A DNA stretch of 64,000 nucleotides from Nitrosopumilus sp. (GTDB lineage: Archaea > Thermoproteota > Nitrososphaeria > Nitrososphaerales > Nitrosopumilaceae): assembly GCA_965207075.1 (NCBI GenBank), contig CBDBLO010000002.1, positions 1,376,001-1,440,000 of the forward strand. Reading direction: 5' to 3'. How positions within the stretch are numbered: the first letter of the stretch is position 1; the number at the start of each line of letters is the position of its first letter. The notes below the pieces were generated by a model, which had not been told where the DNA came from, searched no databases, and saw only the letters and a list, made by a program, of their open reading frames with translations. A program made the translations under genes and the position numbers. This document shows, in pieces, positions 30,152 to 49,892 of the stretch.

Positions 30152-33100
30152 ATGATACTTGATGCCCTGCGCCCGATCAAGACGAATGCAACCTCATCTA
30201 TTACAATTGCGCTGATCGCGTTTGCGCTGTGCGCCATACCTGCGTTTGTAACCGATGCAGAGGCCCAAGTGCGCACAGCATATGATCTTGAGAGCATAGA
30301 GTCGCGGGTTCAGGCAGAGGTAACACGTGTAGTGGATCTGTACTCGGAACAGGGTGAGGCGGCATTCGACACGATCACGCCTGCAGGAGTGTCAAACGTC
30401 AACAAGATAATTCCGTTTGTCGTAGATGCCAGAACCCTGGAGATCAAGGCGCACGGGGCAGTTCCAAATTTTGTCGGACAGACTGCACAAGGTCTGACCA
30501 GGGCAGACATACCCTACAGGGATATTCTCGCCGACCTGCGGGATGGCGAGGTGTGGATAGAGCACATCGGCATAAACCCGGCCAATGGCCAAAACCAGGC
30601 AAAGCGGACCCTGCTGCAACTGCACGACGGCTACATATTTGCCGCCGGCCACTACCTCGCAGACTCCGAGGTCCAACAGTTTGTAGAGGACACGGTGCGG
30701 CTATACGAGTCTCATGGAAGAGGAGCCTTTGATCGAATCACCCCCGACGCGCCAATCATAACAGACGCGCTATACCCGTTTGTGATACGCGCTAGTGACT
30801 GGACCAGGGTGGCAGACGGCGTCGTGCCCGCCCGGGTCAATCAGCCTGAGACCATACTGGACACGTCTCCAAGATCAGTCACTAACGTGCTTGCCGACCT
30901 GAGGGCCAACGGCGGCACGTGGGTGACGTATACGTTTCACAATCCGGCCACGGACATAGAGCAGCTCAAGCGCACGTGGCTCTACCTGCACGACGGCTAT
31001 GTGTTCGGATCCGGATACTATCCGCACGACTCCACGGCCCAGTCACTGGTGGATTCGGCCATAATCCTGTATACGGCACGCGGTGTGGGGGCGTTTAACC
31101 TCATAACGCCGGATGCGCCCGATCCGTTCTCGACGAGGTCCACCTTTGTGCTTGATGCCGAGACCTTGGAGATAAGGGCCCATGGCAGATCACCCGGGCT
31201 GGTGGGCACGATCGACACGCACCTTGCGTCGGCAGACATATCCTTGGATCGAATCAACGAAAGGTTGGACGCCGAGAAAGGCATCTGGATATGGCACATG
31301 GCCCGAAATCCCGCCACCCAGACAGACCAGCTTACCCACACCTACCTGTCTTTGCGCGACGGGTACATCTTTGGCGCCGGCTACTCGCTGCCCGATATCA
31401 GGCTGCAGTCCGTGGTCGACGACGCGATATTCACATACAGGAACAACCCCCAGACCGGCTTTGAGACGATAAGCTCCGGGGAGATCAACAGGATAGACGT
31501 CTTTCCGGTAGTCAGAAACGCGACACACATAGTTGCGCACGGCGCAGTGCCCGGCCTGATCGGGACGTCGCCCCAGGTGGAGGGATTAAGGAATTTCGAA
31601 GAGGCGAGAGAGGCGCTCATAAGAAGCGGGGGATCGCTGTGGTCGCAATTTTCATTTGTCAACCCGCTTACAGGTACGGAGCAGATCCAGCGCACCTTTT
31701 GGATGTTTTATGACTCCTATCTGTTCGGGGCGACATACATCGTTTCAGATGCCGACGCACAGTCGGTCACCGACTATGCGAGGTTTATTTACGAATCCAA
31801 CCGGGAGAACGACGCGTGGATCGACATCATAACGCCTGATGCGCCCATCAGGACGGACGCGCTCTACCCGTTCGTGATAAACGCGTCCACCTGGACCAGG
31901 CTGGCAGACGGCGTCGTGCCCGCCCGGGTCGGGCAGCCCGAGACCATACTGGACACGTCTGCAAGATCAGTCGAGGACGTGCTTGCCGACCTGAGGGCCA
32001 ACGGCAGGACGTGGGTGACGTATACGTTCCACAATCCAGACACGGGCGTGGAGCAGCTCAAGCGCTCGTACCTCCAGCTGCACGACGGCATAGTCTTTGG
32101 ATCCGGTTACTACCTGCTCGACTCCCACGTTCAGGGAGTAACGCAAAGTAGGATGCTAGAGTACTCGAACAACGGCAGGGACGCGGCCATCGCCTCCATC
32201 AACACGATCCCCGGCGCGCCGTTCACCACGTACGCCTTTGTGGTCGACCCACGAACCGGGGAGACGGTGGCGCAGAACGTGGATCCCGGCGCGATAGGCG
32301 CCACCACCGACTGGGACGCCATTACAGGCGTGCTGTCGGCGCAAGAGATCATCGATGCCACGGGCCAGGGAACCGGCACGTGGGTCAGCTACCCGCACAC
32401 CAACCCCGTGACCGGCGAGACGGAGACCAAGCGCTCGTGGCTTGCCATGCATGACGGCCTGATATTCGGGGCCGGATACTATACGTCGGACATACCCGAG
32501 TCAGACGTCAGGTTTGCAGTCAGCAACGCGATACGCATCTACGAGACCAACCAGGCAAACGACGCGTGGATCGACATCATAACGCCGGATGCGCCCATCA
32601 CGACTGACGCGCTATACCCGTTTGTGATACGCGCTAGCGACTGGACCAGGGTGGCAGACGGCGTCGTGCCCGCCCGGGTCGGGCAGCCTGAGACCATACT
32701 GGACACGTCTGCAAGAACACCCGGGGACGTGCTGGCAGAGCTCAGGGAGAATGGAAGCCTGTGGGTGACGTACATATTCCACAATCCCGCCACCGGGGTG
32801 GAGCAGCTCAAGCGTTCGTACCTCCAGCTGCACAAAGGATTGGTGTTCGGGTCCGGCTACTATGTGCTGGAGTCCAACGTGCAGTCGGCGTCGCACAGCC
32901 GCATACTAGAGTACGAGCGCGACGGAAGGGACGCCGCCCTTGCCTCCATCAACGCGATCCCCGAGAGCCCCATATCCACGTACGTCTTTGCCGTACATTC
33001 CTTGACGGGGTCCACGGTGGCGCAGAACGCAGATCCAAGGCTGATAGGAGTCTCCGACTGGGATGCCATCGTGGCCGTGCACCGGGCAGAGGACATCAGG

Positions 33101-34051
33101 GACGCGACAGACAAGGGAACCGGCGCGTGGGTCAGCTACCCGCACACCAACCCCGTGACCGGCGAGACGGAGACCAAGCGCTCGTGGCTCGTCATGTTCG
33201 ACGACCTGATATTCGGGGCCGGATACTATACATCGGACATACCAGCGTTAGACGTCAGGTTTGCAGTCAGCAACGCGATACGCATCTACGAGACCAACCA
33301 GGCAAACGACGCGTGGATCGACATCATAACGCCGGATGCGCCCATCACGACTGACGCGCTATACCCGTTTGTGATAGACGCGGCCACTTGGACCAGGCTG
33401 GCAGACGGCGTCGTGCCCGCCCGGGTCAACCAACCTGAGACCATACTGGACACGTCTGCAAGAACACCCGGGGACGTGCTTGCAGAGCTCAGGGAGAAGG
33501 GAAGCCTGTGGGTGACGTACATATTCCACAATCCCGCCACGGATGTCGAACAGTTCAAGCGCTCGTACCTCCAGCTGCACGACGGGCTGGTGTTCGGGTC
33601 CGGATACTACATACTGGATTCCAGCGTGCAGTCGGCGTCGCACAGCCGCATACTAGAGTACGAGCGCGACGGCAGGGACGCGGCCATCGCCTCCATCAAC
33701 ACTATCCCCGACGCGCCGTTCACCACGTACGCCTTTGTGGTCGACCCAGAAACCGGGAACACGGTGGCGCAGAACGTGGATCCTGATTGGATAGGCTACA
33801 CCACCGACTGGGGAGCCATTACCTCGGTGCACTCATCACAGGGCATTGTGGACGTGATAAGCCGGGGAACCGGCACGTGGGTCAGCTACCCGCACACCAA
33901 CCCCGTGACCGGCGAGGAGGAGACCAAGCGCGCATGGCTCGTCATGTTCGACGGCCTGATATTCGGGGCAGGATACTATACGTCGGACATCCTTGCCACG
34001 CCTCCGTCCGGTCCGGGCTTTGATGGCGCCTTCAAAACGGTGTGCAGATGA
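30152..34051 (+). CDS. Secreted protein of ten tandem single-Cache (Cache_2-like) domains
   Basis: Signal peptide (…TDAEA|Q); ten ~125-aa repeats with W-x-x-Y…NP.T…KR…GxxFGxGYY; no C-terminal TM or output domain; ends KTVCR*. Confidence 0.85.
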   Translation: MILDALRPIKTNATSSITIALIAFALCAIPAFVTDAEAQVRTAYDLESIESRVQAEVTRVVDLYSEQGEAAFDTITPAGVSNVNKIIPFVVDARTLEIKAHGAVPNFVGQTAQGLTRADIPYRDILADLRDGEVWIEHIGINPANGQNQAKRTLLQLHDGYIFAAGHYLADSEVQQFVEDTVRLYESHGRGAFDRITPDAPIITDALYPFVIRASDWTRVADGVVPARVNQPETILDTSPRSVTNVLADLRANGGTWVTYTFHNPATDIEQLKRTWLYLHDGYVFGSGYYPHDSTAQSLVDSAIILYTARGVGAFNLITPDAPDPFSTRSTFVLDAETLEIRAHGRSPGLVGTIDTHLASADISLDRINERLDAEKGIWIWHMARNPATQTDQLTHTYLSLRDGYIFGAGYSLPDIRLQSVVDDAIFTYRNNPQTGFETISSGEINRIDVFPVVRNATHIVAHGAVPGLIGTSPQVEGLRNFEEAREALIRSGGSLWSQFSFVNPLTGTEQIQRTFWMFYDSYLFGATYIVSDADAQSVTDYARFIYESNRENDAWIDIITPDAPIRTDALYPFVINASTWTRLADGVVPARVGQPETILDTSARSVEDVLADLRANGRTWVTYTFHNPDTGVEQLKRSYLQLHDGIVFGSGYYLLDSHVQGVTQSRMLEYSNNGRDAAIASINTIPGAPFTTYAFVVDPRTGETVAQNVDPGAIGATTDWDAITGVLSAQEIIDATGQGTGTWVSYPHTNPVTGETETKRSWLAMHDGLIFGAGYYTSDIPESDVRFAVSNAIRIYETNQANDAWIDIITPDAPITTDALYPFVIRASDWTRVADGVVPARVGQPETILDTSARTPGDVLAELRENGSLWVTYIFHNPATGVEQLKRSYLQLHKGLVFGSGYYVLESNVQSASHSRILEYERDGRDAALASINAIPESPISTYVFAVHSLTGSTVAQNADPRLIGVSDWDAIVAVHRAEDIRDATDKGTGAWVSYPHTNPVTGETETKRSWLVMFDDLIFGAGYYTSDIPALDVRFAVSNAIRIYETNQANDAWIDIITPDAPITTDALYPFVIDAATWTRLADGVVPARVNQPETILDTSARTPGDVLAELREKGSLWVTYIFHNPATDVEQFKRSYLQLHDGLVFGSGYYILDSSVQSASHSRILEYERDGRDAAIASINTIPDAPFTTYAFVVDPETGNTVAQNVDPDWIGYTTDWGAITSVHSSQGIVDVISRGTGTWVSYPHTNPVTGEEETKRAWLVMFDGLIFGAGYYTSDILATPPSGPGFDGAFKTVCR

Positions 34052-34179
34052 TAAGCAGGCCGCACGCATACTGCCCGCCGCAGCAACAGCAGATGATCTA
34101 TTGAGCGCCCAAAGCCTGCCGGCAACATACTACGCAGGACGCAAGGGTTAAATCACAAATGTCCAGACGCTACCCAAGG

Positions 34180-34256
34180 GCCGCCCTAGCTCAGCGTGGT
34201 AGAGCATCCGACTGTTAATCGGACGGTCGTCAGTTCAAGTCTGATGGGCGGCGCCA
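34180..34256 (+). tRNA. tRNA-Asn(GTT), encoded CCA
   Basis: GCCGCCC/GGGCGGC acceptor, TAGCTCAG..TGGTAGAGC D-arm, TCCGA-CTGTTAA-TCGGA anticodon arm, GTTCAAGTC T-loop. Confidence 0.97.
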
Positions 34257-34417
34257 TCACACCTTCTTCTTCATCCCGCCACCGTCATTGCCGCCCGCAT
34301 TGCCGTCGCATCACTATCATAACCCGCCCGCACACCACACAGGTTCTTGCGCGCCGGCCCCGTACCGCAGACGGTAAATACCGGTCCGGCCATCCAGTGT
34401 CATGGGGCTGTACGCGG

Positions 34418-34669
34418 TTGCCTAGGACAAGGAGGGCCAACAGATACTGCGTGGACTGCGGGGCGAGGCTCGTGTATTATCCGCGCCTCTCAAACCCAAA
34501 GGCGCCAAACGAGCACAGGGTGCTGGTGTATGCGTGCCCCGACTGCACGGCCGACTTTGAGAAGCCAAAGCTGCTCTCAATACGCCGCAACCAGGTGGAC
34601 GAGCCGCTTGAGGCAGTAGAGGTAGAGATTACGCAAGAGCGCAAAAAGGCCGGCAAAGGCCATACGTGA
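34418..34669 (+). CDS. Small zinc-ribbon protein
   Basis: TTG start; YCVDCG…YACPDC. Confidence 0.7.
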   Translation: MPRTRRANRYCVDCGARLVYYPRLSNPKAPNEHRVLVYACPDCTADFEKPKLLSIRRNQVDEPLEAVEVEITQERKKAGKGHT

Positions 34670-34774
34670 CCGGCAGCGGCCGTCCTGTCCCAAGCGCGCC
34701 CGCAGCATAGACCAACGGGGGCGGCTTGGCGGCAGTGGCACGGAGGCGGACGCAAGGGTGGCGGCGCATCTTCG

Positions 34775-37429
34775 TCACGCCTCTATTATTATGGCCGCCC
34801 TTGCATCCTCGGCCAGCTCGCCCCGTACGGCGCTCAGCACGTGGGACGGCGATGTCAGCCCCGAATAGTCCAGCATCCTGACGTCGTCTATCAGATGGAC
34901 GGGCGGGGCTATCCCGGAGTGTCTGGACTTCATGTACTCGTCAAGCTTCTCGGTTACGGCATGCTTGCCACCATGAAAGATCACGTCGCATGCAACGTCC
35001 AACTTCGACCTGCCAAACCTGTCAAGCACCAAGACTCGCCGCCTGTCATTCTTGCCAAACAGGCGCCGCCGCGTCGCGGGTCCGACCATCGCCATGAAGT
35101 GATCCGATTCAAACTCCAGATTTACCAGGCCGGCGTCCACCTGCATTATCTCAGACGCCCTTTTGAGCGCCTCATCAGGGCCGAATGCGGCAAGCATCCC
35201 GGCATCGGACGGCGCAGCCGCTGCAGCCGGCGACTCCGCTGCGCCTCTGCCGTGACCTGATCCCGCCTCGCCTGATGTCGTCCCATGCAGGCCGGCAGAG
35301 GCCTCCTCCATTGCAACGCTGCCGGTTGCCGTAATGCGCAGTATTCCTTTGTCTGATATGTGCCTGCTGTCTATCCTGACTGACTCTGGGACGGCTCCCT
35401 TCTTGATCAGGCCGGTGCGCGCATCCTTGTGGGCCGCCGATATCATCTCCGGCGTCGGATCAGTCATTGCAATCTCAAGCTCCTCCTGCAGCATCGATGA
35501 CGCAACGCCTATTGACGATATGACTTCCGCATGCGGGGCCTTCTCGTATGTCATGCCCATGTTTTTTGCCACCTCCGGGACAAGCACGGACGCCCCTCCG
35601 CCGCCTCCTATCACCTTTGTCGTCCTGGCCTCCATCTTGTACTCTTTTAGGACCCGGCTCACCGTCTTTGTAATCTCCTGGGCGGACGTCAGGATTACCG
35701 ACATCGCGGCCTCCGAATATGAGACTCCCATAGCATCGCCAAGCTTGCGCAGGGCGGCTTTTGCGGCGGCCTCGCTGCCACCACCACCACCGCCGCCGCA
35801 CTCAGAGTAATCGCCGCTCGGTATGCGTCCGAGCGCATTTGCGGCGCACGTGTTTGTTATTGCGTAGGTAGTGCCGTCGCCACACCTTATTGCAGCATAT
35901 TCGGGTTCGTCGTTTGGCCTGGGGCTTATCATGACAAGCTGCCCCGATTCTACATCCGATGCGTTCTCGGCATAGCATGCGTACCGCAGCCCCGCAATGT
36001 GGGCGCTTCTCGGCCCGACGCGGTGCACGCGCTTCTTGCGCACCACAACCATGCTGCCCCCTGCCACCCCCACTATCCGAACATCCATGGAGCGTATGCA
36101 CGTGGGATGATCTCGTATCGTAACGTAGCGTATCTCGGGCCTGCCGTCTTTTATTATGCAGATGTTAGTCGAGGTGCCCCCCACCTCGATGAATATTCCG
36201 TTTGTGACGCGCAGGTGCAAGAGCGCGCCTGCCACGCTGGCGGCGGGGCCGGACAGCACCGTAAGGATGGGCCTCGAGCGGAACGTCGACATGCTGGTGA
36301 CCCCCCCGTCGCCGCGCATTATCAGCAGCGGGGAGGTGACGCCGGCCTCTGACATGGCCCCCTCGACAAAGTCTGCGACCTGGAGGGTCTTTGGCATTAT
36401 GCTTGCGTTTACGGCCGCAGTCAGCGTGCGAATCTCAAGCCCGTACGTGCCCGATATCTCATGCGACGCGGTGCAGGGCAGTCCCGCGGCTGCCGCCTGC
36501 TCTGCGACAAACTCCTCGTTTGCGGGATCGTCTACCCCGAACATCTCAGTGGCGACTATGCACTTGGCGCCCGAGTCGCGCATGCGTGCTATCACGCCTG
36601 AGACCTCTTGCTCTGTTATCAGGTGTGACGTGTCCAAGAATTCGTGGTACGTGTGCAGGTTCTTGCTTGAACTGCCCTTGTGGCCTTGAAGGATCGAGCT
36701 GCGTTCATCAAGCCGGGTCCTCTTGATGACGTCTTTTTTTGTCGGGCCGACGCCCATTGCCACGATCCCGACAGGATACGTGTCGCCCTCAAGCAGTGCG
36801 TTTATGGCCTGCGTGGTGCTGTGCGCGACCAGATCTATGTCGTCGAGCGCCGTGCCCGAATCGTGTACCACGCGCGTAAACGCATCAAGTATTCCATCCG
36901 ACACGCCACGTCTGGCATCGTGCGTGGTCGGCACCGTAGATACCGAGACGATGTCCCCGGTGGCGGAGTCTATTGCGACTGCCTTTGTAAACGTGCCCCC
37001 CACATCTATGCCAATACGGACGCGTCGGCGGTAGGCGACACTGCCGATCTCCTCGCCGTTACTGTCAGCCGAGTTTTTGCCGTCGTCGCGCATGCGGGCG
37101 TTGCCGCGGCCGTTGCTTCTGCCGACGCTGCTACCCGTGCCATCACCATCTCTGCCATTATCATAATTCTCGCCATTGCGGTCAAGATTGTAGCGGTATG
37201 TCTCCAAGGCAGGGATCGGGCAGGCATCATCATCATCGCCACCACCATCAAGAAGAAGAATACGGCGCGCACTTGCCGCGCGATGATTCGCGCATTCGGA
37301 ATTTGGACGGTACTCAAACTCGCGTATGTGGTGAGTCCGAGATGGGCCGCCTGACATGTACGGAGATGCAAGACCAGATGACGGTGATGGCACACCGCGT
37401 TGCGGCCAGTGTTCATTATAAATATTCAA
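34775..37429 (-). CDS. Hydantoinase/oxoprolinase-family ATPase (true start probably further downstream, near 37093)
   Basis: IGIDVGGTFTK, HSTT..NALLE, RTLTAAVNA, LSGPAAS, EVGGTSTN, GPRSA; the first ~110 aa are low complexity. Confidence 0.85.
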   Translation of the reverse strand: MNIYNEHWPQRGVPSPSSGLASPYMSGGPSRTHHIREFEYRPNSECANHRAASARRILLLDGGGDDDDACPIPALETYRYNLDRNGENYDNGRDGDGTGSSVGRSNGRGNARMRDDGKNSADSNGEEIGSVAYRRRVRIGIDVGGTFTKAVAIDSATGDIVSVSTVPTTHDARRGVSDGILDAFTRVVHDSGTALDDIDLVAHSTTQAINALLEGDTYPVGIVAMGVGPTKKDVIKRTRLDERSSILQGHKGSSSKNLHTYHEFLDTSHLITEQEVSGVIARMRDSGAKCIVATEMFGVDDPANEEFVAEQAAAAGLPCTASHEISGTYGLEIRTLTAAVNASIMPKTLQVADFVEGAMSEAGVTSPLLIMRGDGGVTSMSTFRSRPILTVLSGPAASVAGALLHLRVTNGIFIEVGGTSTNICIIKDGRPEIRYVTIRDHPTCIRSMDVRIVGVAGGSMVVVRKKRVHRVGPRSAHIAGLRYACYAENASDVESGQLVMISPRPNDEPEYAAIRCGDGTTYAITNTCAANALGRIPSGDYSECGGGGGGGSEAAAKAALRKLGDAMGVSYSEAAMSVILTSAQEITKTVSRVLKEYKMEARTTKVIGGGGGASVLVPEVAKNMGMTYEKAPHAEVISSIGVASSMLQEELEIAMTDPTPEMISAAHKDARTGLIKKGAVPESVRIDSRHISDKGILRITATGSVAMEEASAGLHGTTSGEAGSGHGRGAAESPAAAAAPSDAGMLAAFGPDEALKRASEIMQVDAGLVNLEFESDHFMAMVGPATRRRLFGKNDRRRVLVLDRFGRSKLDVACDVIFHGGKHAVTEKLDEYMKSRHSGIAPPVHLIDDVRMLDYSGLTSPSHVLSAVRGELAEDARAAIIIEA

Positions 37430-37637
37430 AAAACAACCACGAATGCCAGGACTATGCGCAAATGCATCACATGTCGCTCATCATCATCATCATCTTTCAT
37501 CATCGTCATTATTGTTACCACCACCACCACCATAACAGGGCCATTGGCATCGGCAATGAAGAGCCAATTCTAGAAATCTAGATCAAACCCATGAAGCATG
37601 CGGACTGTTTATAACAAAACACCCCGTGTCGGATTTA

Positions 37638-39422
37638 ATGATTAGAAGGACAGTAATAATGACATCCATAATGACCATGGCCGTGGCGCTTTCCGTCACG
37701 ACATCACACATTGCATACGGAGAAGATATCGGCGTGCCAGAAAAACTCGAATTCGGGGCCGCGCTCGAGGAGACGTTGGGGCACTTTAGGGCGCTCGAGC
37801 TGAACCTGGACGCGGGCAACGGGGATCTTGCCAGGACGCACGCGACGCACCCGGTGGCCGAGCTGTACGACTCTATGAAGCCCACGCTGGCCGCGGCCGA
37901 TCCCGCGCTCGACAGAAAGCTCGGGACCATGCTTGACGAGCTGAGGGACAAGGCGAGCACAGAGGTAAGCCGGAGCGAGGCGCAGTCCGCAATCGACGAC
38001 GCAAAGGAGGCAGTTGAGGAGGCCCGCATGGCCGTCATCGGCGCGGATCTCAGCTCCGACCCTGCATTCAAGCTAAATCTCATGAAGACCCTGCTTGAGA
38101 CGTCCGCTGCCGAGTACGGCGAGGCCGTCTCAGACGGAAGGATAACCGAGATGGCAGAGTTCCAAGATGGCTCCGCATTCGTGTGGCGCTCGCAGCAGGT
38201 GCTGCAGACCATGGAGTCCGAGCTGGGCTCCGAGACATACGGGTACCTAGAACTGTCGTACGGAAGCCTCTGGGACGCGTACGATGCAAGACTTGATCCC
38301 TCCGAGGTGTCCGGACTTACAGACTCGGTACTCGGACAGGTCGAGGTTGCGGTTAACGAGCAGCTTGCAGAAAGACTCGAATTCGGGGCCGCGCTCGAGG
38401 AGACGTTGGGGCACTTTAGGGCGCTCGAGCTGAACCTGGACGCGGGCAACGGGGATCTTGCCAGGACGCACGCGACGCACCCGGTGGCCGAGCTGTACGA
38501 CTCTATGAAGCCCACGCTGGCCGCGGCCGATCCCGCGCTCGACAGAAAGCTCGGGACCATACTTGACGAGCTGAGGGACAAGGCGAGCACAGAGGTAAGC
38601 CGGAGCGAGGCGCAGTCCGCAATCGACGACGCAAAGGAGGCAGTTGAGGAGGCCCGCATGGCCGTCATCGGCGCGGATCTCAGCACCTACTACGGGTTCA
38701 AGCTGATGCTTATGACAACCCTGCTTGAGACGTCCATAGCCGAATACGGCGAGGCCGTCTCAGACGGAAGGATAACCGAGATGGCAGAGTTCCAAGATGG
38801 CTCCGCATTCGTGTGGCAAGCCGAGCAGATTCTGCGCACTATGGAGGGCGACCTTGACGGAGACGACTACGAGGAGCTTGTCGGGGTATTCGACGAGATA
38901 AACGAGGCGTACGACGACAGGCTTGACCCGTCGGAGATCGACGAGCGCACCAGCTACCTGCTTGCTGAGATAAACGGAATTCTCGGCGTAACAGGCGGTG
39001 ATGAGGACACGCTTCTGACATATGTCGACAACATCAACATGCTCCTTGAAGAGGCACGTGAAGAATACAATGCAGGTAACTCTGATCTGGCCTTGAGCCA
39101 CGTCACAAAGGCGTACCTGAACAACTACGAATTCCTAGAGATGCCACTTATGGAAGCAGGCGAGAGGGAGCTTATGGAAAGAGTCGAGGTGATGATGCGG
39201 GAAGAGCTGCGCAACATGATAAAGCAGGGTGCTCCCGCATCAGAGGTCAGCGATCAGATAGATGCTATACTGGTAGAGATGGAGGCGGTGGCAGTCATCG
39301 TCCCAGAGTTTGGGGTCATGGCATCGGTCGTACTTGCAGCAGCGGTTGCACTAGTACTGGGTCTTTCCACGCGCAGCCACCGCATTGCAGGCGTTTCGAT
39401 ACTGCCGACGCGAACAGTATAG
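37638..39422 (+). CDS. PEFG-CTERM secreted metal-binding helical-bundle protein with internal 210-aa duplication
   Basis: Signal peptide; duplicated GH…HATHPVAE…AEFQDG units; AYLNNYEFLE; C-terminal VPEFG + TM + basic residues. Confidence 0.85.
   Translation: MIRRTVIMTSIMTMAVALSVTTSHIAYGEDIGVPEKLEFGAALEETLGHFRALELNLDAGNGDLARTHATHPVAELYDSMKPTLAAADPALDRKLGTMLDELRDKASTEVSRSEAQSAIDDAKEAVEEARMAVIGADLSSDPAFKLNLMKTLLETSAAEYGEAVSDGRITEMAEFQDGSAFVWRSQQVLQTMESELGSETYGYLELSYGSLWDAYDARLDPSEVSGLTDSVLGQVEVAVNEQLAERLEFGAALEETLGHFRALELNLDAGNGDLARTHATHPVAELYDSMKPTLAAADPALDRKLGTILDELRDKASTEVSRSEAQSAIDDAKEAVEEARMAVIGADLSTYYGFKLMLMTTLLETSIAEYGEAVSDGRITEMAEFQDGSAFVWQAEQILRTMEGDLDGDDYEELVGVFDEINEAYDDRLDPSEIDERTSYLLAEINGILGVTGGDEDTLLTYVDNINMLLEEAREEYNAGNSDLALSHVTKAYLNNYEFLEMPLMEAGERELMERVEVMMREELRNMIKQGAPASEVSDQIDAILVEMEAVAVIVPEFGVMASVVLAAAVALVLGLSTRSHRIAGVSILPTRTV
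37745..38684 (+). repeat. Intragenic 310-bp near-identical direct repeat (37745-38054 / 38375-38684)
   Basis: Offset 630 nt; only one substitution seen (ATG/ATA). Confidence 0.9.
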
Positions 39423-39677
39423 AACGTCCAAACACTCTTTATTTTTTTATTTTTGATCACGCGCGCCGCCAAGCGTATTGGCGATCCTGCACGTTACGGC
39501 TGCGCTTATACGCACTATGAACGAACGACTACGCGTGCTGCCCACCACCACTCATGCTCGATCATACCATCAATTCTGATACGGTGATGCGGCTATCACA
39601 TGATCATACGATACCTCAGCTTCTAGAATCTTGTAATGAAATTCGGGTTTAAATTGATCTGACGGGAACAGCGTATA

Positions 39678-42086
39678 TTGATACGCCCAGGACGCGACAG
39701 GCATGGGATTGCAGCCCGATTCTCTTCAATGTCCGTGCTTTTAGCCCTGCCGCTTTTGCTTGTTATCGCGCCTATTCCGGCCACCACCGGCGACTCCGTG
39801 GACCACGCCCACTTCTGGACGCAGGCGCATGCCGCAGACGATGCGCCCTCTGCAGCCGCGGGGCCCGACCTGGCCGGTGCCGGCAGCGGTGCGACCATGC
39901 AGCCAACACCTGCCGCGTTTTACCCGATAGATGCCGGACTCGACGTCGCGCATGCGCGGCTTGGCGCGGGGGACTTGGAAGGCGCCGCGCATGCGGCGCA
40001 GTTTGCATCCGAGCAGTTTGCGCTGGGCCTTGAGTCGTTCCGGAGCATAGACCGCGACGCCACGAACCACGTACACGTTACACTGCTTGACATAGGGGCA
40101 ACCATAGGCGACGCCCCGGCCGAGCAGAGTGCCGACGCCGTATCCGAGGCGATAGACGATCTTGGCCGGTTTGGCATGCAAGGTGCGGCCGATCCGCGGG
40201 CGTCAGTCGTCTATATGCTCACCGTCGCCGAGGAGCAGTACCTCGAGGCCGGCGAGGACGCGCAGGAAAACGAGGCCGCATACATGATATCGCAGATCCT
40301 GTTCAGGCAGGCCTCTGAAATGTTTGCGCACGATGCGGACACGACGGTCATGCTCGACCTGGAGCAGCAGTCCTTCTTTCGCGATCTGATCAGGGCCGTA
40401 GACGAAAAGGACAGCTTTGTGACCGTGGGAACGCTCGTCAGCGCGATACAGCGCGACCTGCTTGGGACGGAAACCACAGAGGCGCGCGACCACGCGGCAT
40501 ACTTTGAGAACATACGCAACCTGTACGCGGACATGCGCGTCTCCCTTGGCGAAGGCGACTATGATGCGGCCCAGGAGCACGCCATAGAGGCATACCTGGA
40601 GAACTTTGAATATCTCGAACCCACCCTGGAGGCCGCCGACGCCGAGTTCATGTATGCGCTCGAGATAGAGATGCGCGAGGACCTCCGCGACATGATACGA
40701 GAGGAGGAGCCTGCAGGGGACATACTGGAATTCCTCGACGGCACGATACTGCCAAAGCTGGAACAGGGCGAGTCCATCGCCATCGAGTATCTGGGAGAGC
40801 AGTCCGCCGCGGCCCAGTCCGGAATCGCGCTGGCGGACACGGGCATGGAACTAAGGGCGATGGGGGACACTACGGAGTCCGAGCAGTCCGAGGTCAGAAC
40901 CGAGATCGACTTTATCAGGGACAGCCTGCAGGACATGATGATACTCTACGAGTCGGGCGACTACGAGTCGGCATACGCGACAGCCCGCACGGCATACCTT
41001 GACAGCTACGAGTACGTCGAGATACCGCTCCGGCCCATCGCCCCGGACTTTACGCTGGAGGTGGAGTACCTGTTTGCAGAGCTGCGCAGCTCCATAAAGA
41101 AGGAGGCGCCCGTCCACGAGGTGCGCTCTCTTGTCGCGCAGATAGACCGCAACCTCGACGAGTCAGAAAGGCTCGTGACGGGAACGGGGCAGGTCGCCCC
41201 GCTGATTGCGTTCTCCGCGTCGTTTGCCATAATATTCCGCGAGGGGCTGGAGGCGGTCCTGATACTGGGCGCCATAATGACATATCTGGAGGCGTCGCGC
41301 AACAAACGCTTCAAGATTTATGTCCACTACGGCGTGGTCGCCGCAATCGGCGCGACCGCGGCCACGTGGTTTGTGGCGTCGTATGTGATAGAGATATCGG
41401 GGGCCAGTCGTGAGCTGATAGAGGCCATTGCGGCGCTGTCGGCCACCGCGGTGCTGTTCTATGTCAGCTTCTGGATACTCAACAAGATAGAGCACAAAAA
41501 ATGGATGGAGTTTGTAAAGGCAAAGGTCTGGCAGGCCACCACCACGGGCAGCGTGATGGTATTCGTAATGCTCTCCTTCTTCACCGTGTACAGGGAGGGC
41601 TTTGAGACGGTGCTGTTCTACCAGGCGATGTTCGGCTTTGCCAAGTATATGGAGATGTACGTCGGGCTCGGGTTCGTCCTGGGCATCGGATCCCTTCTTG
41701 CCATATACTTTGTAATGAGGATGATGGGCAAGCGGCTCCCGCTGCGCGTGCTGTTCGGGCTTACGATGGGAATAGGCGCGTACCTCTCAATCGCCTTTTT
41801 GGGAAACGCGATAAGGGAGCTGCAGGTGCTCGACATCGTGCCATATACGAGCATGATTGGCACAATACCGCGCCTCGACATCAACATGGCCACGATGACG
41901 GGCATATACCCGACCCTTGAGACGGTGATAGGGCAGATCGTTCTGCTCGGCGTATACATGGTCGCATCCGCATACATACTGATAGTCAGGCCCAGGAGGG
42001 AGAGGGCGATTGCGGCCATGAGGCAGTCGAGAAAAAGTGCAAAGGGTGCTGGCGGCTCACAGGCGGGCGCCGGTGGCGGGGCCTGA
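39678..42086 (+). CDS. FTR1-family iron permease with long extracellular N-terminal domain
   Basis: Two RExxE motifs (REGLE, REGFE); about 7 TM; AYLENFEYLE / AYLDSYEYVE repeats. Start uncertain. Confidence 0.92.
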   Translation: MIRPGRDRHGIAARFSSMSVLLALPLLLVIAPIPATTGDSVDHAHFWTQAHAADDAPSAAAGPDLAGAGSGATMQPTPAAFYPIDAGLDVAHARLGAGDLEGAAHAAQFASEQFALGLESFRSIDRDATNHVHVTLLDIGATIGDAPAEQSADAVSEAIDDLGRFGMQGAADPRASVVYMLTVAEEQYLEAGEDAQENEAAYMISQILFRQASEMFAHDADTTVMLDLEQQSFFRDLIRAVDEKDSFVTVGTLVSAIQRDLLGTETTEARDHAAYFENIRNLYADMRVSLGEGDYDAAQEHAIEAYLENFEYLEPTLEAADAEFMYALEIEMREDLRDMIREEEPAGDILEFLDGTILPKLEQGESIAIEYLGEQSAAAQSGIALADTGMELRAMGDTTESEQSEVRTEIDFIRDSLQDMMILYESGDYESAYATARTAYLDSYEYVEIPLRPIAPDFTLEVEYLFAELRSSIKKEAPVHEVRSLVAQIDRNLDESERLVTGTGQVAPLIAFSASFAIIFREGLEAVLILGAIMTYLEASRNKRFKIYVHYGVVAAIGATAATWFVASYVIEISGASRELIEAIAALSATAVLFYVSFWILNKIEHKKWMEFVKAKVWQATTTGSVMVFVMLSFFTVYREGFETVLFYQAMFGFAKYMEMYVGLGFVLGIGSLLAIYFVMRMMGKRLPLRVLFGLTMGIGAYLSIAFLGNAIRELQVLDIVPYTSMIGTIPRLDINMATMTGIYPTLETVIGQIVLLGVYMVASAYILIVRPRRERAIAAMRQSRKSAKGAGGSQAGAGGGA

Positions 42087-42434
42087 TCGGCGGGCGGATA
42101 GCGGAAGGGCCGGTATCACGTCATGTCCCACACGCGCTGCCGCCACTGGCAACAACGCGCCCAAGCCACCAAGCCACCCCGACGTCACGCGTATAGGTAC
42201 GCGCGCCTTCCATGCTAGAATGTCACGCATATGGCAGGAAGACAGGCCTTTTGGATATCCATGAGCCAAGCAGACGGGGCTTGTAGACGCCTGATCAAAC
42301 CATCTTGTGCTCCGGGTACGGCGTCAGATGTAATCAGGGTATAGCGCCATAAACCAAGATCATAAACCACGTTATCGCAACATAACCATAAGACACTCAC
42401 CACCTTTAAGAAACAATTATAGATTTGACAGAAC

Positions 42435-42749
42435 ATGAGTGGCGAAGAGACACATCTTTGGGTCATGGTCAGCAACATGGATCAGGACGCAAAGGCCGAT
42501 GAGGTCCCAACCATCATATCCAGAATTACGTCGCTTGTGGACGACTGGCACTCCAAGGGCAGAATAATGCTGTCAGGCCCGTTTGACAACAAAACGTCGT
42601 CTATGACAGTCGTTGCGGCAAGCACAAAAGAAGCGCAGGAGCTGTTTCAACAGTGGAAAGACATCTGCTCTGGATTCCTTGTATCTGAGATGTACAGGTG
42701 GGACGCGATGCCAATTCTCTCCGTTATGGCAAGGCAGGATCTGCATTAG
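42435..42749 (+). CDS. YciI-like / dimeric alpha-beta barrel protein
   Basis: GRIMLSGPF…SSMTVVAASTKEA pattern. Confidence 0.55.
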   Translation: MSGEETHLWVMVSNMDQDAKADEVPTIISRITSLVDDWHSKGRIMLSGPFDNKTSSMTVVAASTKEAQELFQQWKDICSGFLVSEMYRWDAMPILSVMARQDLH

Positions 42750-43384
42750 CCAATGCGGCAAGAACTGGCAATTCCAACTTTTTTACTCGGTCACGTCTAT
42801 TGGGCATTCCCTGACGGATTCAGTCTCAGGCGCATTTTGCGATTTCTGCAGGACGGCCAAGTCACATAGAGATGCGCAGGGGTCAGGAATCCGTTTCTTG
42901 TTGCCGGCACTCGAAAATACGTCAACAATCTCTCTTGCAGCATATTCCTTGTTCCTTTTTTTTTTGGTGCCGACCGGCTCACGTCACCTCGCCGCCACGG
43001 TTGCGCTCAGACCGTCCGCGTGGATTGGGAAATTATGGCGCGCTCGATCATCTCACCATTATGGAATCTTAGCTCTCCCGATAAGACGGCCGGGTAGGCG
43101 GGGTCGGGGTGGGGGGGGGAGAAGGGAATGCGAACCGGCGATCCCTTTCGGATCCACGCCGGACTCCGGTGGGGGGTGGCCAACAGGCCGAAATTGGAAA
43201 GACGTCACGACCGCAATGCGGACTGTTGCAAGGATGACATGAATCACACCGGTGCGGCAGCGGCGGCCCGGCAGTCCCTGCATGCCGGCCCCGCGGCCCC
43301 TCCTGCGGCGCCCCTGCCCCACTCAGATCAGCACATGCGTGGCGAGGATCTGCATGCCGCAGGGCGCGTCCCCGATCGGTATGA

Positions 43385-43609
43385 TTAGTCGCCTGCGCCT
43401 AGGATCTCAGAGGTCCTCAGCTCCTTGACCCTTCCGACGAGGCCGTCTTCCAGCCTGACTTTGATGCCATGGGGGTGGGATCTTGAGGACGTCAGGATCT
43501 CCCTTACCGTACCCCCCGTCAGCCGGCCGGTGCCCCGGTCGGCCTTTGTCTCTATTCCCACCTTGCATCCTTTGCGTATCTGATCCCTGATGGGGAGAGG
43601 GCCGGCCAT
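43385..43609 (-). CDS. YwbE (DUF2196) family protein
   Basis: K.D..TG.LT.G.V.EILT.S..HPHGIKVRL.DG.VGRV. Confidence 0.88.
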   Translation of the reverse strand: MAGPLPIRDQIRKGCKVGIETKADRGTGRLTGGTVREILTSSRSHPHGIKVRLEDGLVGRVKELRTSEILGAGD

Positions 43610-43949
43610 GCGCGCACGGGGGCGCCCGGCGATTTAAAGTGGTCGAACCGGGGGCCTGACAGTATTGGATGAGTTTGCGCCTCTGAATTTTCCCCCAAAG
43701 CGGCGTTCGGCCCTTCCTACCGCATGGGTGCTGGCAACCAAACGCGGCGGCGGTTCGGAAAAGGCGGACGCAGAGCGGACGACATGCCGGTTGCGGCAGA
43801 GGGGGGGGGAGACGAGGCGCCCGTCAGCTGAAAAAAAAGAATCCAAGCGGCAGGGAATAGCAGGCTGTCGGCCCCTCTGGCTCGAGATCCCCCCGGAACC
43901 GGTGGCGCATACGGCGCAAAACTGCAAGTTACGCATACGGCGCCCCGCG

Positions 43950-44873
43950 TCACAGAGCGATCTTGCAGATCTCTATCCACCCGTTCCGCTCGCCAAATAC
44001 CGCGTTGCACCCAGTTCTCCTCGCCTCCATCGATCTCATGTCGTGGCGCGACAGGACGGTACCGCCCAGTCCAGCCGCGCGAGCCTCGACATCGCCGGGG
44101 CCATATCTAGTCGTAAAGGCCCACAGCGAGTCTTCGGCCGTCAGGCCGGGCGGGTGGTGCGGCATCGGAAACGCGGCCAACGGTATGACCGATTCGTACG
44201 CCTCCTTTACTATGAGGTCAAACGGGCGGCTCGCCACCGGCCTGAGATCCTCGGGTATGTCGGAGGTGGGAAGAAGGTATTCCAGGATCATCCTGCTGCC
44301 GCGATGAGCGGTGGGGAATCCCGACGCAAGCCCCCAGAGATCCCCGGCAGTCAGATAATACGACAGCCCCTCCACCACCAGCAGCGACGGCTCGTCCCAG
44401 CTCCACCCGGCCCCGGCCAGTCCAGACATCACGGACGCGCGCTTTGACGCGTCGGCGGTAACGCACCTCAGGGTGCCGCGCAGATCCCGCGCAAGCGGGC
44501 CGACAAGCTGCTCCTTGCGGCCCATGCCTGCAGAGTCGACGTCAAAGACCACGCAGTCGAGCCGCGAACAGAGCTCTATTGACAGGGCGTCCATGCCGGC
44601 CCCTAGTATCACCACCTGCCGCGTGCCGTCGTTTTCAATGCAGTCCAGCGCGAGGTCGAGCACGCACGACTTTCTGTTCCTTATCACCTCCGGATAGTGC
44701 GGCCAGAACTGGTCGCACTCCCTCATGACGCCCTCGCCCAGGCCCAAGTCCAGCATGCTGAGAAACCTCTGGGCCGGAGCGCTTGTATGCGCCCTGCCGT
44801 CGGACCACAGCAGTACCAGCGCCGAGGTAGAGGAGAGAAGGTCCACGACGCCGCGCGCGTGCGGGCCGCACAT
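43950..44873 (-). CDS. Class I SAM methyltransferase, LCM (leucine carboxyl methyltransferase-like) family
   Basis: RQVVILGAGMD, FDVD, LLVVEGLSYYL. Start uncertain. Confidence 0.85.
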   Translation of the reverse strand: MCGPHARGVVDLLSSTSALVLLWSDGRAHTSAPAQRFLSMLDLGLGEGVMRECDQFWPHYPEVIRNRKSCVLDLALDCIENDGTRQVVILGAGMDALSIELCSRLDCVVFDVDSAGMGRKEQLVGPLARDLRGTLRCVTADASKRASVMSGLAGAGWSWDEPSLLVVEGLSYYLTAGDLWGLASGFPTAHRGSRMILEYLLPTSDIPEDLRPVASRPFDLIVKEAYESVIPLAAFPMPHHPPGLTAEDSLWAFTTRYGPGDVEARAAGLGGTVLSRHDMRSMEARRTGCNAVFGERNGWIEICKIAL

Positions 44874-45173
44874 AAACCGTTGCCGGACTGGCGACGGCGG
44901 CAGTGGCGGCAAAGGAATCCAGAGGTGACTCGAGAAGTGCTGGTGTGCATCTACCACCCCGCAGCTGGCTCCAATGCCCCTTCCAAGACCTCGGCCGGGG
45001 CCTACGTCCGGCCAGGGAACCCGGGCAGGACTGGGAGGGTGCACACAGGCCGACTCCAAGTGAACTCCCGAGCACCGCGCATACCGTAACTACTGGCACG
45101 AAATTTCAGTCGGCACGGACACATACCCGAAAGATAATGAATGTTATTAAGATATTCCGGCAGGGCCACATAG

Positions 45174-47585
45174 ATGGACGCTGATTTGAGGCATGGCAGT
45201 CCCCGATACGCGATGCCGGCCGTGACAGTAGTCGCCGCGGCCGCCTTGGTTCTGGTCGCGGCAGGAGCGCTGCCGCATGTGGCAGAGCAGGCGGCGCATG
45301 CACAAGAGCAGCAGCCCGAGATCAGGACGATTGGCATAATCGTAATCCAAGGCAATCCGGACGTAGCCGAGAGAATGGAGCGCACATTCAAGATCGCACT
45401 GGAGGACTTTAACAAGAAACTGGCCAAAGATGGAAGAGACTGGCGGCTGGCAGCAGAATTTGTCATGATACGGGACGCCAGCGATACGACGGGGGCAATC
45501 AACGGCCTGAATGCAAAGGGGATAAAGGCGGTGGCCGGATTCATAGACGACGCGGGGGTCGCTGACGCGTACGATACCATACATCAGAACAACATGATAG
45601 TAGTCACATCCAGCTCCGGACTGCCAGAGCTTTCCCTGCGCGACAACATATTCAGGACGGCCTCCGCGTACAACAACGTGGCAGACGCGTTCGTAAACGT
45701 AATGCAGCAGGACGGCAAGACCGAGATCATCAACTTGTTCCTGGACTTTCGGGTGGGGCAGACATTCAACTCGACAATATACAGGATGCTCGAGGACGTG
45801 GACGACATGTCCATGCTGGGCTCTATCAAGTTTGGCAGCAACATAGCAGGCGATGCCGGGAGGATACGGGGCGAGATGATCCAGATACTCCAGAGCACCG
45901 ACAACCACGAGAACGTCGGAATCTTTGTCACCGGGATCCCCTCCAGCGCGGGGGTGCTTGGAATAATGGCAGGCCTTGACACGGGGACCGACTCGGCCAT
46001 AGGCAAGACCACGTTCTACGGAACCGGAACGCTGCAGCCAGGCATCGAAGGCAGCAAAAGGGTGCTGCAGTTCATGGAAAAGACCGGCTACAGGGGAATC
46101 GAGACGGGCATACACGAAAACGAGCTTAACATACGCCTCGACAGCCTGCTGGGCCACGCCCTGGCAGCCCTGACGTACGACGCGTACTCGACAGTCCAGA
46201 TACTTGGAAGGGCCATCGACAGCGCAGGCTCGGCCACTAATACGGCCATCATAAGACAGAACATGGATCAGGCCGCCCGGGACTATTCTCCCGTGTCCGC
46301 GCGCGGCATAGACGCTAACTTCGATGAGTACGGCGACGCTGCAGAGAGGGACGTCCACATATCGGAGATAAGAAACGGCAAATTCGTCATTACGCAAGAG
46401 TATGATCCAGACCACCACGGCATAACTGAGCTCGCCCCGTTCTCGGAGCCGGAGAGGCGGAAGCTTGGCGCAATCGTGTCGGAGACCGGAGAGCTTGCAT
46501 GGGTGATGGAGCCCGCAAGCGCCGCCATAAGCCTCGCCGTGTCTGACTTCAACATAGAACAGTTCAGGGCCGGGACCGACTACAGGATAGACCTGATAAA
46601 GCGCGACGACGGCACCGACCCGTCACGCACCGCACAGCAGGCAAGAGCCCTCGAGGCACTCGGCTCAAACGCGATAGTCGGGCCCGCGTACAGCGGGGGA
46701 GTCGGGAGCATAGCGGCGCTCAGCAGCGGCAACATCATAGCCGTGAGCTATGGGTCGGGCTCGCCCGAGTTCAGCACCCCGGACGACAACATATTCCGCG
46801 TACTGCCAGACAACGTGGCTACCTCAAAGGTATACGCAGAGATAATGGCACAAGACGGAATCGAGAACCTCATAATCGTGCACAGGGACGACGCATGGGG
46901 CAGGATAACCAGCGCGTCCATGTACGACATCGTCGCAGAGCGCACCGACATCACGCGGATTGACGGCGTCGCGTATGCGCCCGGTACCACCGACTATTCT
47001 ACAGTGACGGACCGCCTTGCCGGCGCGCTTGGTGCTGCGGGCGCAGGGGACGCGCCCAGCACGGCAGTGGTGCTATTGGCCTTTGGGGAGGAAAACGACA
47101 TAATCCGGTCCGCCGCATCCGACCCGCGCCTGCAGGAAAGCAGGTGGTACGGGATCAATATCAGGTCGCAGGCCGACAACGCAGGCATCACACCATGGAT
47201 CGAAAGGGCAGGATATACGACGGTGACCACCAAGCATGAGCCCAACGCGCTAAACGCGCGCATAGCTTCCGAGGTTCCGGGCGCAAACATCTATTCATAC
47301 CACGCGTACGACGCGACTCGGCTTCTGATAGAGGTATTGCAAAGGGAGGGCGGCGTGACTGGCAGCGTTCCCCTTGCGCGCGCAGGCAACGCCATCTACC
47401 AGAACACGGTGGAACCCACCGCGCTGGGGGTACCGCTTGTATTCAACGAGAACGGCGATCTGGACGCGGACTCGGTAAACTATAGCATTTATCGCACGAC
47501 GGGAGGAGAGTCAGTACCCTTGTTGGTCTTTGATTCCGCGTCTGAGACGATCAAGTCGGCAACGCCCGTCAGAATATGCAGATAA
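45174..47585 (+). CDS. Secreted tandem-domain LivJ/type I periplasmic-binding-fold substrate-binding protein
   Basis: Signal peptide (…AAHA|Q); two repeats of A..DFN…DNIFR…YDA…F.E.GD; ends VRICR*; no transporter genes adjacent. Confidence 0.85.
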   Translation: MDADLRHGSPRYAMPAVTVVAAAALVLVAAGALPHVAEQAAHAQEQQPEIRTIGIIVIQGNPDVAERMERTFKIALEDFNKKLAKDGRDWRLAAEFVMIRDASDTTGAINGLNAKGIKAVAGFIDDAGVADAYDTIHQNNMIVVTSSSGLPELSLRDNIFRTASAYNNVADAFVNVMQQDGKTEIINLFLDFRVGQTFNSTIYRMLEDVDDMSMLGSIKFGSNIAGDAGRIRGEMIQILQSTDNHENVGIFVTGIPSSAGVLGIMAGLDTGTDSAIGKTTFYGTGTLQPGIEGSKRVLQFMEKTGYRGIETGIHENELNIRLDSLLGHALAALTYDAYSTVQILGRAIDSAGSATNTAIIRQNMDQAARDYSPVSARGIDANFDEYGDAAERDVHISEIRNGKFVITQEYDPDHHGITELAPFSEPERRKLGAIVSETGELAWVMEPASAAISLAVSDFNIEQFRAGTDYRIDLIKRDDGTDPSRTAQQARALEALGSNAIVGPAYSGGVGSIAALSSGNIIAVSYGSGSPEFSTPDDNIFRVLPDNVATSKVYAEIMAQDGIENLIIVHRDDAWGRITSASMYDIVAERTDITRIDGVAYAPGTTDYSTVTDRLAGALGAAGAGDAPSTAVVLLAFGEENDIIRSAASDPRLQESRWYGINIRSQADNAGITPWIERAGYTTVTTKHEPNALNARIASEVPGANIYSYHAYDATRLLIEVLQREGGVTGSVPLARAGNAIYQNTVEPTALGVPLVFNENGDLDADSVNYSIYRTTGGESVPLLVFDSASETIKSATPVRICR

Positions 47586-47696
47586 CTCTGCCGCTCTTCG
47601 AAGAGTACAGAATGGCAATGGGCAACCACCCGCACATCATAGGCCGTGTTCTGTCACATGCGAAGCGGTTAAAAGCACACTTGGTGACCCAGCGTT

Positions 47697-47897
47697 ATGC
47701 AGATCCAAACGACTCGGAGTAACTGGTGGTTCCTGTTGCCGATATTCCTGAATATAGTTGGAGGAATAATCGCATACTTTGTGCTGCGGCACGACGATCC
47801 GCAAAAGGCCAGGAACTGCCTTATGCTTGGTGCAGTATTGCTTGCAATACCGATAGTATTAGGTTTCGGATTGGACGCGCTGCCGGCAGCAGACTAG
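47697..47897 (+). CDS. Small two-TM protein, paralog 1
   Basis: RSNWWFLLPI…GGIIAYFVLRHDDPQKARNCL. Confidence 0.75.
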   Translation: MQIQTTRSNWWFLLPIFLNIVGGIIAYFVLRHDDPQKARNCLMLGAVLLAIPIVLGFGLDALPAAD

Positions 47898-48195
47898 TAC
47901 GCGCACTACGAAGGACGTAATTTTTTATTTACTTATCAGGCCGCATACGGCCGCGAACCGACGGCCTCAGGACACCGACGTGCACCGAATCCCAGCACAA
48001 GGCCAAAGCGGGCCATCGACAGTAGCCGCTAGCCAACCTACCGCACGGCGCGCTGTTGGCGGACGGGCGTATGCACGTTAAGTTCCGAAGTGGTATGCAG
48101 GGGATCCGCGCGAAGATGAGATCAAAACTGTTCCCGCAGAGTACCGGTCCGTGGCGTTCTCCAACGGTTATAAGCAGACCCGCCAATCCAGAATC

Positions 48196-49862: not shown

Positions 49863-49892
49863 TCAGGACCCGCCAGATGCAGGCAGCATATA

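Follow-up and report, generated by a model that had tools for sequence, protein, structure and literature searches.

About 20 exported proteins of an ammonia-oxidising archaeon (Nitrosopumilus sp.) and of its closest relatives end in Cys followed by Arg, and this shared ending points to an undescribed route by which proteins may be fastened to the cell surface. Two of the proteins are encoded in the stretch of DNA analysed here (hereafter the window: 64,000 nucleotides of contig CBDBLO010000002.1, assembly GCA_965207075.1), and an original prediction based on these two genes had proposed that the Cys-Arg (CR) end is a new C-terminal sorting signal. We find that the CR end is, almost certainly, a selected C-terminal signal on exported proteins of one clade, with its Cys free for intermolecular chemistry. 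No description of a Cys-Arg end was found in literature searches.

The two carrier genes of the window and the features that were assigned to them are as follows.

30152-34051, plus strand: secreted Cache-repeat protein of 1299 residues, ending ...KTVCR-stop (open reading frame, Pfam).
30152-30265, plus strand: predicted Sec signal peptide of the Cache protein, residues 1-38, cleaved after AEA and before Q (AEA/Q; translation and hydropathy heuristic).
33989-34048, plus strand: C-terminal tail of the Cache protein, a 20-residue Pro/Gly-rich linker ILATPPSGPGFDGAFKTV past the last Cache domain, then Cys-Arg (homologue comparison).
45174-47585, plus strand: secreted type-I periplasmic-binding protein of 803 residues in two modules, ending ...PVRICR-stop (open reading frame, Pfam, AlphaFold2).
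45174-45302, plus strand: predicted signal peptide of the binding protein, residues 1-43, cleavage AHA/Q (translation).
47559-47582, plus strand: C-terminal tail of the binding protein, residues 796-803 (SATPVRICR region; model and alignment).

The prediction had described two unrelated secreted proteins ending in Val or Ile, then Cys-Arg-stop, and both open reading frames (ORFs), both TGC positions, the predicted AEA/Q and AHA/Q cleavage sites and the unrelatedness of the Pfam folds were borne out; the residue before Cys-Arg is beta-branched in both carriers. The Cache protein (C-terminal letters ...GAFKTVCR-stop) has Cys only at residue 27, within the signal peptide, and at residue 1298, whose TGC codon begins at 34043 (Cys-Arg codons TGC AGA, 34043-34048), and its membership of the Cache family is clear from dCache_2 (1.7e-19; 70.5 bits against a cut-off of 26.5) and sCache_2 (5e-15). 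The binding protein, for which our gene caller favours a start at 45213 over 45174, ends ...TPVRICR-stop with its sole Cys at residue 802 (TGC at 47577; Cys-Arg codons TGC AGA, 47577-47582) and matches Peripla_BP_6 (96.2 bits against a cut-off of 31.7) and ANF_receptor. A hydropathy scan found neither a lipobox nor a hydrophobic stretch within the last 30 residues in either carrier, in agreement with the claim that both lack a lipobox and a C-terminal transmembrane segment. An AlphaFold2 model of the binding protein, computed from a 12-sequence alignment (mean predicted local distance difference test score, pLDDT, 82.9; predicted template-modelling score, pTM, 0.80), has the two-lobe alpha/beta fold, with alternating strands and helices in two tandem modules, and residues 1-46 at pLDDT <50. 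As its last beta-strand spans residues 792-795 and residues 799-803 again have pLDDT <50, the terminal Cys lies on a short disordered end outside the fold.

Across the source genome (G000; 2.23 Mb, 60% GC), CR ends are far more frequent than composition predicts. The gene set comprised 2179 proteins from a dicodon-model caller of our own, covering 83% of the DNA; gene, signal-peptide and membrane-helix calls are throughout our own crude heuristics, and whole-proteome counts rest on G000 and on a control genome, G018. Composition predicts 1.8 CR ends among these proteins, whereas 23 are observed (binomial p 5e-18); when the 254 proteins ending in Arg are taken as given, the expected number rises to 3.7 (p 6e-12). 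No other C-terminal dipeptide is as enriched as CR (12.7-fold), the runner-up reaching 4.7-fold. Cys is penultimate in 42/2179 proteins, a modest excess over the 24-38 found elsewhere in the stretch -1 to -10 (nine positions), while the related endings RC, CK and CRG are found on three, zero and zero proteins, respectively. When proteins were divided by a crude, stricter classifier, 16/216 secreted-like proteins ended in CR, compared to 7/1963 of the remaining proteins; the enrichment of penultimate Cys among secreted proteins on which the prediction depended is thus present genome-wide.

Such endings might have no function and reflect chance, compositional bias or a mobile 3' sequence common to the genes; errors of annotation or assembly, for instance an overlooked read-through into a membrane helix, could also produce them. 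Indeed, chance alone should give about two to four CR ends, three of the 23 have that appearance, and IS630-like transposase genes lie near several CR genes (the family label is our own reading of N-termini, unconfirmed by search). Beyond the extremely low p value, however, several observations speak against this explanation. Among 13,594 ORFs outside the gene calls, 55 end in CR where 36.7 are expected, and since uncalled ORFs have no comparable excess, no DNA-level bias lies behind the CR ends. CR genes use TAA, TAG and TGA as stops and four different Arg codons, and the DNA 3' of them is unrelated apart from two duplicated pairs, which argues that the motif is selected at the protein level; with codons and downstream DNA both differing, a shared mobile 3' end was ruled out. 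Stop-codon read-through or frameshift into a hidden membrane helix was likewise rejected, as all three stops are used and, in the three downstream frames of the 21 CR genes whose products have at least 250 residues (20 credible carriers plus one dehydrogenase that is a chance case), no hydrophobic segment was found except in a single read-through frame, leaving 20/21 genes with none. The tail is also seen again in independent assemblies and metagenome contigs. Given these tests, we regard a functionless CR end as refuted for practical purposes. The IS630-type-looking genes, similarly labelled from their N-termini only, adjoin several CR genes at positions 259509-260444, 541041-541973, 698765-699781 and 875807-876814 of G000 contig C2, which suggests that CR genes near transposase-like genes are located in variable regions.

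The control genome G018 belongs to the same genus and is a complete contig of 1,892,740 bp (53.5% GC), on which the same gene caller gave 1932 proteins. One of these ends in CR, against 1.3 expected, and it is a protein of 165 residues whose N-terminus is unlike a signal peptide; G018 is hereafter referred to as CR-free.

Three of the 23 CR proteins in G000 resemble chance cases, one being a cytoplasmic 2-hydroxyacid dehydrogenase and the others the products of short ORFs (51 and 72 residues). The remaining 20 are large, and 18 of them have a signal-peptide-like N-terminus by our heuristic; L001 is a near-identical copy of a signal-peptide-positive CR protein, and L017 is the final piece of a frameshifted giant DUF285/PKD gene. 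A Pfam scan of 20 CR proteins, the dehydrogenase among them, places the carriers in at least seven unrelated families: type-I binding proteins (ANF_receptor/Peripla_BP_6), SBP_bac_3, SBP_bac_5, dCache/sCache repeats, DUF285 (PARCEL) with PKD, fourteen K319L-like PKD repeats, and DUF6851 with a vanadium-chloroperoxidase-like domain (VCPO). Three carriers matched no Pfam family.

The mature chain contains an odd number of Cys residues in each of the 18 CR proteins that have a signal-peptide-like N-terminus (one in eleven, three in six and nine in one), compared to 171/519 of the other proteins with signal-peptide-like N-termini. The terminal Cys is therefore without a partner inside its own chain. 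In the three-Cys carriers the other two Cys are mostly near each other (for example 343/353, 89/96 and 69/95), and in a clade-only family represented by L010 the Cys pair and the terminal Cys are kept in 6/6 homologues. The prediction that the penultimate Cys is the only one in the mature chain thus holds for both window proteins and for 11/18 carriers genome-wide, the others having three or nine.

The giant DUF285/PKD surface-protein gene (G000 contig C2:1996903-2004846, minus strand) is split into three ORFs, the last of which retains ...APKVCR. Two near-identical segments of several kb, at C2:8399-16359 and C2:2155436-2163531 of G000, each encode a CR-tailed binding protein (L001 and L019), together with an 83-residue one-helix protein and a 6-helix membrane protein, L322, that has no Pfam family. 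In another genome of the clade, G345, contig C1 has 52 matches to the DUF285/PARCEL protein, with open frames of up to 5199 residues (e.g. 44053-61421, 982890-990758 and 1959717-1973171), in what appears to be a large expansion of adhesin-like repeat proteins.

The CR tail is kept among homologues at 33-94% identity, while the residues preceding it vary (homologue counts include orthologues and are not independent). Of 13 database homologues of the 803-residue binding protein (33-92% identity), 12 end in CR, and the single exception continues for about 120 residues beyond the corresponding Cys; in an alignment of 12 homologues C802 and R803 are invariant, and none of the seven columns before them has a majority residue. 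For the Cache protein, CR ends were found in 12 of the 120 homologues listed, these being the closest. The other listed homologues end right after the last GxGYYxSD motif, most of them without any Cys, and the tail is therefore an addition to the fold, consisting of a Pro/Ser/Thr/Gly-rich linker of 10-30 residues and then CR. Within five genomes of the clade, CR ends were found in 8/11 ORFs of the SBP_bac_3 family, 3/3 of the L010 family and 10/12 complete ORFs of the SBP_bac_5 family, in which one paralogue has a membrane helix plus Arg/Lys in place of CR; the L010 family has the CR tail in 6/6 homologues. For the DUF285/PARCEL orthologues, the loci examined did not extend to comparable C-termini. 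Absence of the tail from orthologues would have counted against the prediction, and on this point, too, the outcome was favourable.

A few variant tails are longer by a single residue (...YCRG and ...ICRD in G122, ...VCRR in one representative). Among 63 distinct tails, position -1 relative to the CR is Val in 27 and Ile in 19, position -2 is Arg in 20 and Lys in 10, and Pro, Ala, Ser and Thr are abundant at -3 to -6.

The genus is represented by 151 genomes in the collection. CR-tailed homologues were found in six species-level genomes that form a high-GC clade (G000, G345, G348, G122, G062 and G104), and the CR-tailed Cache homologues reside on contigs of ~2.49, 2.32, 2.13, 2.10 and 1.78 Mb. 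Identity to G000 on the core CPBP gene is 87-93% for G104, G062 and G122, 61% for the next genome, G044, and at most 57% for the rest (G345 and G348 lie outside this sample), a gap from which it follows that the CR clade is one deep branch. Of 19 distinct Cache-type ORF ends from another genus (g34) and four more genera, none was CR. Outside the clade, related binding proteins of the same genus have either a terminal membrane helix with basic residues (G002, G018, G081 and G133) or a plain end, and some of the plain-ended ones carry an N-terminal membrane segment. Five of these binding proteins from G002, G018 and G081 (L032, L034, L054, L056 and L059) share a conserved C-terminal module, ...NQVYYSFSPAIADLER...ADPGSE..., that precedes a membrane helix and a basic tail; the module may be an uncatalogued sorting domain.

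The best G018 homologue of 12/20 CR proteins has, at its C-terminus, a hydrophobic helix and then a Lys/Arg cluster, and these 12 comprise every type-I and SBP_bac_5 binding protein among the carriers. When an SBP_bac_5 carrier was searched against a library of 1.84 billion representatives, the best 150 matches comprised 5 with a CR end, all within the six closest (46-80% identity), 74 with a hydrophobic C-terminal tail, one ending VCRR, 3 more with Cys in the last four residues, and 67 others. Inside the clade, paralogues with a CR end and paralogues with a membrane-helix end occur together; a crude tally, too noisy to lean on, put the number of proteins that combine a signal peptide with a C-terminal helix and basic residues at 21 for G000 and 30 for G018. 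The C-terminal membrane-helix anchors of archaeal substrate-binding proteins consist of about 20 hydrophobic residues plus Lys/Arg, whereas the CR tail has only two residues, yet the two occupy the same position in homologous proteins. Because homologues have a membrane helix and basic cluster at that position, the CR tail would do the job of a C-terminal anchor; this is the main argument for tethering, which we consider the probable function of the tail.

The CR tail matches none of the known anchoring signals with which it was compared. No sorting-domain model of NCBIfam matched any of the 15 CR proteins scanned. The tripartite signals have a motif, a membrane helix and a post-helix basic cluster recognised by a hidden Markov model, whereas the CR proteins end with a single Arg and match no such model, and the maximum 17-residue mean hydropathy in their last 30 residues was <=0.91 in all 21. 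To our knowledge, every prokaryotic C-terminal sorting signal catalogued so far has a membrane helix. The nearest described signals are the Cys-bearing tripartite signals MYXO-CTERM and CGP-CTERM, which are cut by myxosortases (10.1101/2023.06.07.544157; PMC11980579), along with PEFG-CTERM. MYXO-CTERM and CGP-CTERM resemble the CR tail in having an invariant Cys near the C-terminus of many unrelated exported proteins, a low-complexity linker before it and Arg after it, and their Cys is the presumed point at which lipid is attached. The CR proteins share the invariant Cys. In MYXO-CTERM and CGP-CTERM, however, a helix and an Arg cluster follow the Cys and are removed by an intramembrane protease, while the CR tail has only Arg and a stop, and no dedicated, co-distributed CPBP protease (PF02517) was found, that gene being core to the genus and present in G018.

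PEFG-CTERM (TIGR04296), with its archaeosortase, is also a C-terminal surface-anchoring signal and operates in the same organisms; about five such proteins are encoded in G000, one of them in the window, next to a permease gene.

37626-39422, plus strand: PEFG-type exported protein of 598 residues with an internal duplication of ~220 residues (TIGR04296 at 21.4 bits, below the curated cut-off of 25).
39729-42086, plus strand: protein of 785 residues in which an FTR1 iron-permease domain is joined to a long extracellular N-terminal portion, encoded 3' of the PEFG-type gene.

These two proteins look like an iron-uptake pair. In PEFG-CTERM proteins the PEFG motif is followed by a membrane helix and basic residues, whereas the CR proteins have no helix and no TIGR04296 match. 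The archaeosortase-like gene was considered as the tail enzyme and set aside, as it gave no more than a weak match in G000 and has a 77%-identical homologue in CR-free G018; with the PEFG tails, it is a separate, conventional system. In eukaryotes, the prenylation motifs CaaX and Rab CC/CXC likewise place Cys in the last few residues, among aliphatic and often polybasic neighbours, and make a soluble protein membrane-attached. Their substrates are cytosolic and their Cys is at -4 or doubled, whereas the CR proteins have signal peptides and a Cys at -2 followed by Arg, and so fall outside both motifs; protein prenyltransferases were not searched for. Finally, lipobox lipoproteins (modified by Lgt in bacteria and by AliA/AliB in archaea; PMC12462473) are exported, use a Cys thiol as lipid site and include many substrate-binding proteins. 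The lipobox Cys is N-terminal, at the end of the signal peptide, while the Cys of CR proteins is penultimate, and the lipobox [LVI][ASTVI][GAS]C was absent from the cleavage site in 20/21 CR proteins, the other having LVAC.

The prediction had also named three redox genes of the window that could service a disulfide bond at the terminal Cys.

3411-4538, minus strand: redoxin plus Thioredoxin_10 gene.
4546-5298, minus strand: DsbD_TM/CcdA gene.
12990-13739, minus strand: DsbA-like gene.

The CcdA, DipZ-like redoxin and DsbA genes are real, and in this respect the proposal stood; their link to the tail did not, since all three have orthologues at 61-76% identity in CR-free G018, so that none is tied to the tail or defines the system. 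VKOR was looked for and not found. Subtracting G018 from G000 left 560 genes without a homologue, of which 274 encode at least 120 residues and 36 have at least two helices. Twenty of the 36 were run against Pfam and gave MFS, a PMT-type glycosyltransferase, T2SSF and A24 proteins of pilus loci, MscS and unknowns; since the clade forms one deep branch, such candidates cannot be told apart by phylogenetic profiling. The 6-helix protein L322, encoded two genes upstream of both L001 and L019, was considered as a helper and rejected: it has no Pfam family and only hypothetical matches in the protein atlas, and it counts as a single case because the two loci are copies of one duplicated segment.

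Divergent from the CR-tailed binding-protein gene of the window, and upstream of it, lies a gene of the leucine carboxyl methyltransferase family (43953-44873, minus strand; PF04072, 9.4e-16). This family methylates C-terminal carboxyl groups, and the neighbouring gene product carries a conserved C-terminal motif; the PF04072 protein lacks an obvious export signal, and CR-free G018 has a homologue at 37% identity. Separately, type-IV-pilus-like loci without a G018 homologue, encoding T2SSF-like proteins, A24-like peptidases and pilin-like small proteins, are found in G000 at C2:736013-760586, 1201593-1206885 and 1719405-1751228.

We propose that the motif [Pro/Ala/Ser/Thr-rich linker]-[Arg/Lys/Ser]-[Val/Ile]-Cys-Arg-COOH would serve as a minimal, clade-specific retention signal on Sec-exported proteins. 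Once a protein has been exported and its signal peptide removed, the unpaired Cys on its disordered tail would become a covalent attachment point to the cell envelope, and the tail would take over the role that a C-terminal membrane helix and basic cluster has in homologues of related archaea. The likeliest chemistry would be a thioether-linked membrane lipid, put on the Cys by an enzyme at the outer face of the membrane, where the flanking basic and aliphatic residues would be placed at the interface; basic residues beside a lipidated Cys are usual in membrane-interface motifs. Attachment of lipid through the Cys is a serious candidate that we hold somewhat short of probable. More tentative still is the full proposal of a new archaeal anchoring system, in which (R/K)-(V/I)-C-R-COOH would be recognised without a helix, outside the cell after Sec export, and joined by a Cys thioether to an archaeal membrane lipid through an unknown enzyme family, as an extracellular counterpart of CaaX. 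Lipobox lipoproteins are reported to be few in TACK archaea (PMC12462473), and an alternative lipid-anchoring route would therefore fill a gap.

Several points weigh against tethering by a lipid. Neither a transferase for the CR tail nor a gene recurring beside CR genes was found in G000 (the latter by neighbourhood comparison), and no obvious candidate enzyme stood out among the 36 multi-helix proteins left after subtraction of G018. The one PF02517 gene, encoding a CPBP/Rce1-like protease and considered as sorting enzyme, was rejected as a core gene (114/121 genus genomes) with a 50%-identical homologue in G018. We know of no prokaryotic precedent for the addition of lipid to a soluble tail outside the cell. 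Cache homologues of other lineages end without a tail, and a tether is therefore not required for the Cache fold to work; most CR binding proteins have no adjacent permease gene; and the surface layer (S-layer) could hold soluble proteins in any case. The CR clade is also one evolutionary origin, and the evidence for tethering is all comparative.

The absence of a clade-specific enzyme would be of no consequence if the terminal Cys were oxidised by extracytoplasmic DsbA-type machinery to form a disulfide, either with a membrane or S-layer protein, as a tether, or with a second copy of the same protein, as a dimer. A disulfide was also what the original prediction named first. The odd Cys count leaves just such a thiol without an in-chain partner, exported DsbA-like, CcdA and thioredoxin-like redox proteins are encoded in the genome, and no new enzyme would be needed, which fits the failed search for one. 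We nevertheless think disulfide formation unlikely: the redox genes are equally present in CR-free G018, so that something else must define the system, no partner was identified, a disulfide has no obvious need of the conserved Val/Ile at -1 or of Arg/Lys around it, and a link to the S-layer would keep binding proteins off the membrane, to which their homologues are anchored. The lipid model is favoured over the disulfide because homologues are membrane-anchored, because binding proteins must reach membrane permeases and because basic and aliphatic residues flank the Cys. Alternatively, the proteins might be soluble under the S-layer and the tail might not tether at all, acting instead as a redox or metal (e.g. 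copper) ligand, as a handle for a host matrix, or as a cap affecting proteolysis or export. Consistent with this, both the tail and Cys itself are absent from Cache homologues of other genera, several of the CR binding proteins are orphans in that they lack an adjacent permease gene, and the clade looks host-associated, its high GC and its expansion of Cache and amino-acid-binding proteins resembling those of sponge Thaumarchaeota (PMC7848895, a comparison covering high GC, amino-acid transporters and Cache enrichment). Such a function would leave unexplained the exact coincidence of the tail with the position that a membrane helix and basic cluster take in homologues, and would not account for seven unrelated folds having one catalytic or ligand need in common at a disordered end; we consider it improbable. 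Tethering through the terminal Cys, with lipid as its likeliest means, remains our preferred explanation.

How binding proteins and sensors are retained at the surface of archaea without lipobox lipoproteins is only partly understood. If the proposal is true, the terminal Cys-Arg signal is a new class and implies that a modifying enzyme or partner protein, likewise new, exists. Predictions of which proteins are secreted, anchored or soluble would change as well, since current predictors would class CR proteins as soluble. In PMC7848895, which concerns sponge Thaumarchaeota, the words 'cysteine' and 'signal peptide' occur zero times; amino-acid and peptide binding proteins, Cache sensors and adhesin-like repeat proteins are singled out there in host-associated Thaumarchaeota. 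The CR clade is small and uncultured, and its CR carriers are those same host-association families; the tail therefore probably shapes the host-facing surface of the cell.

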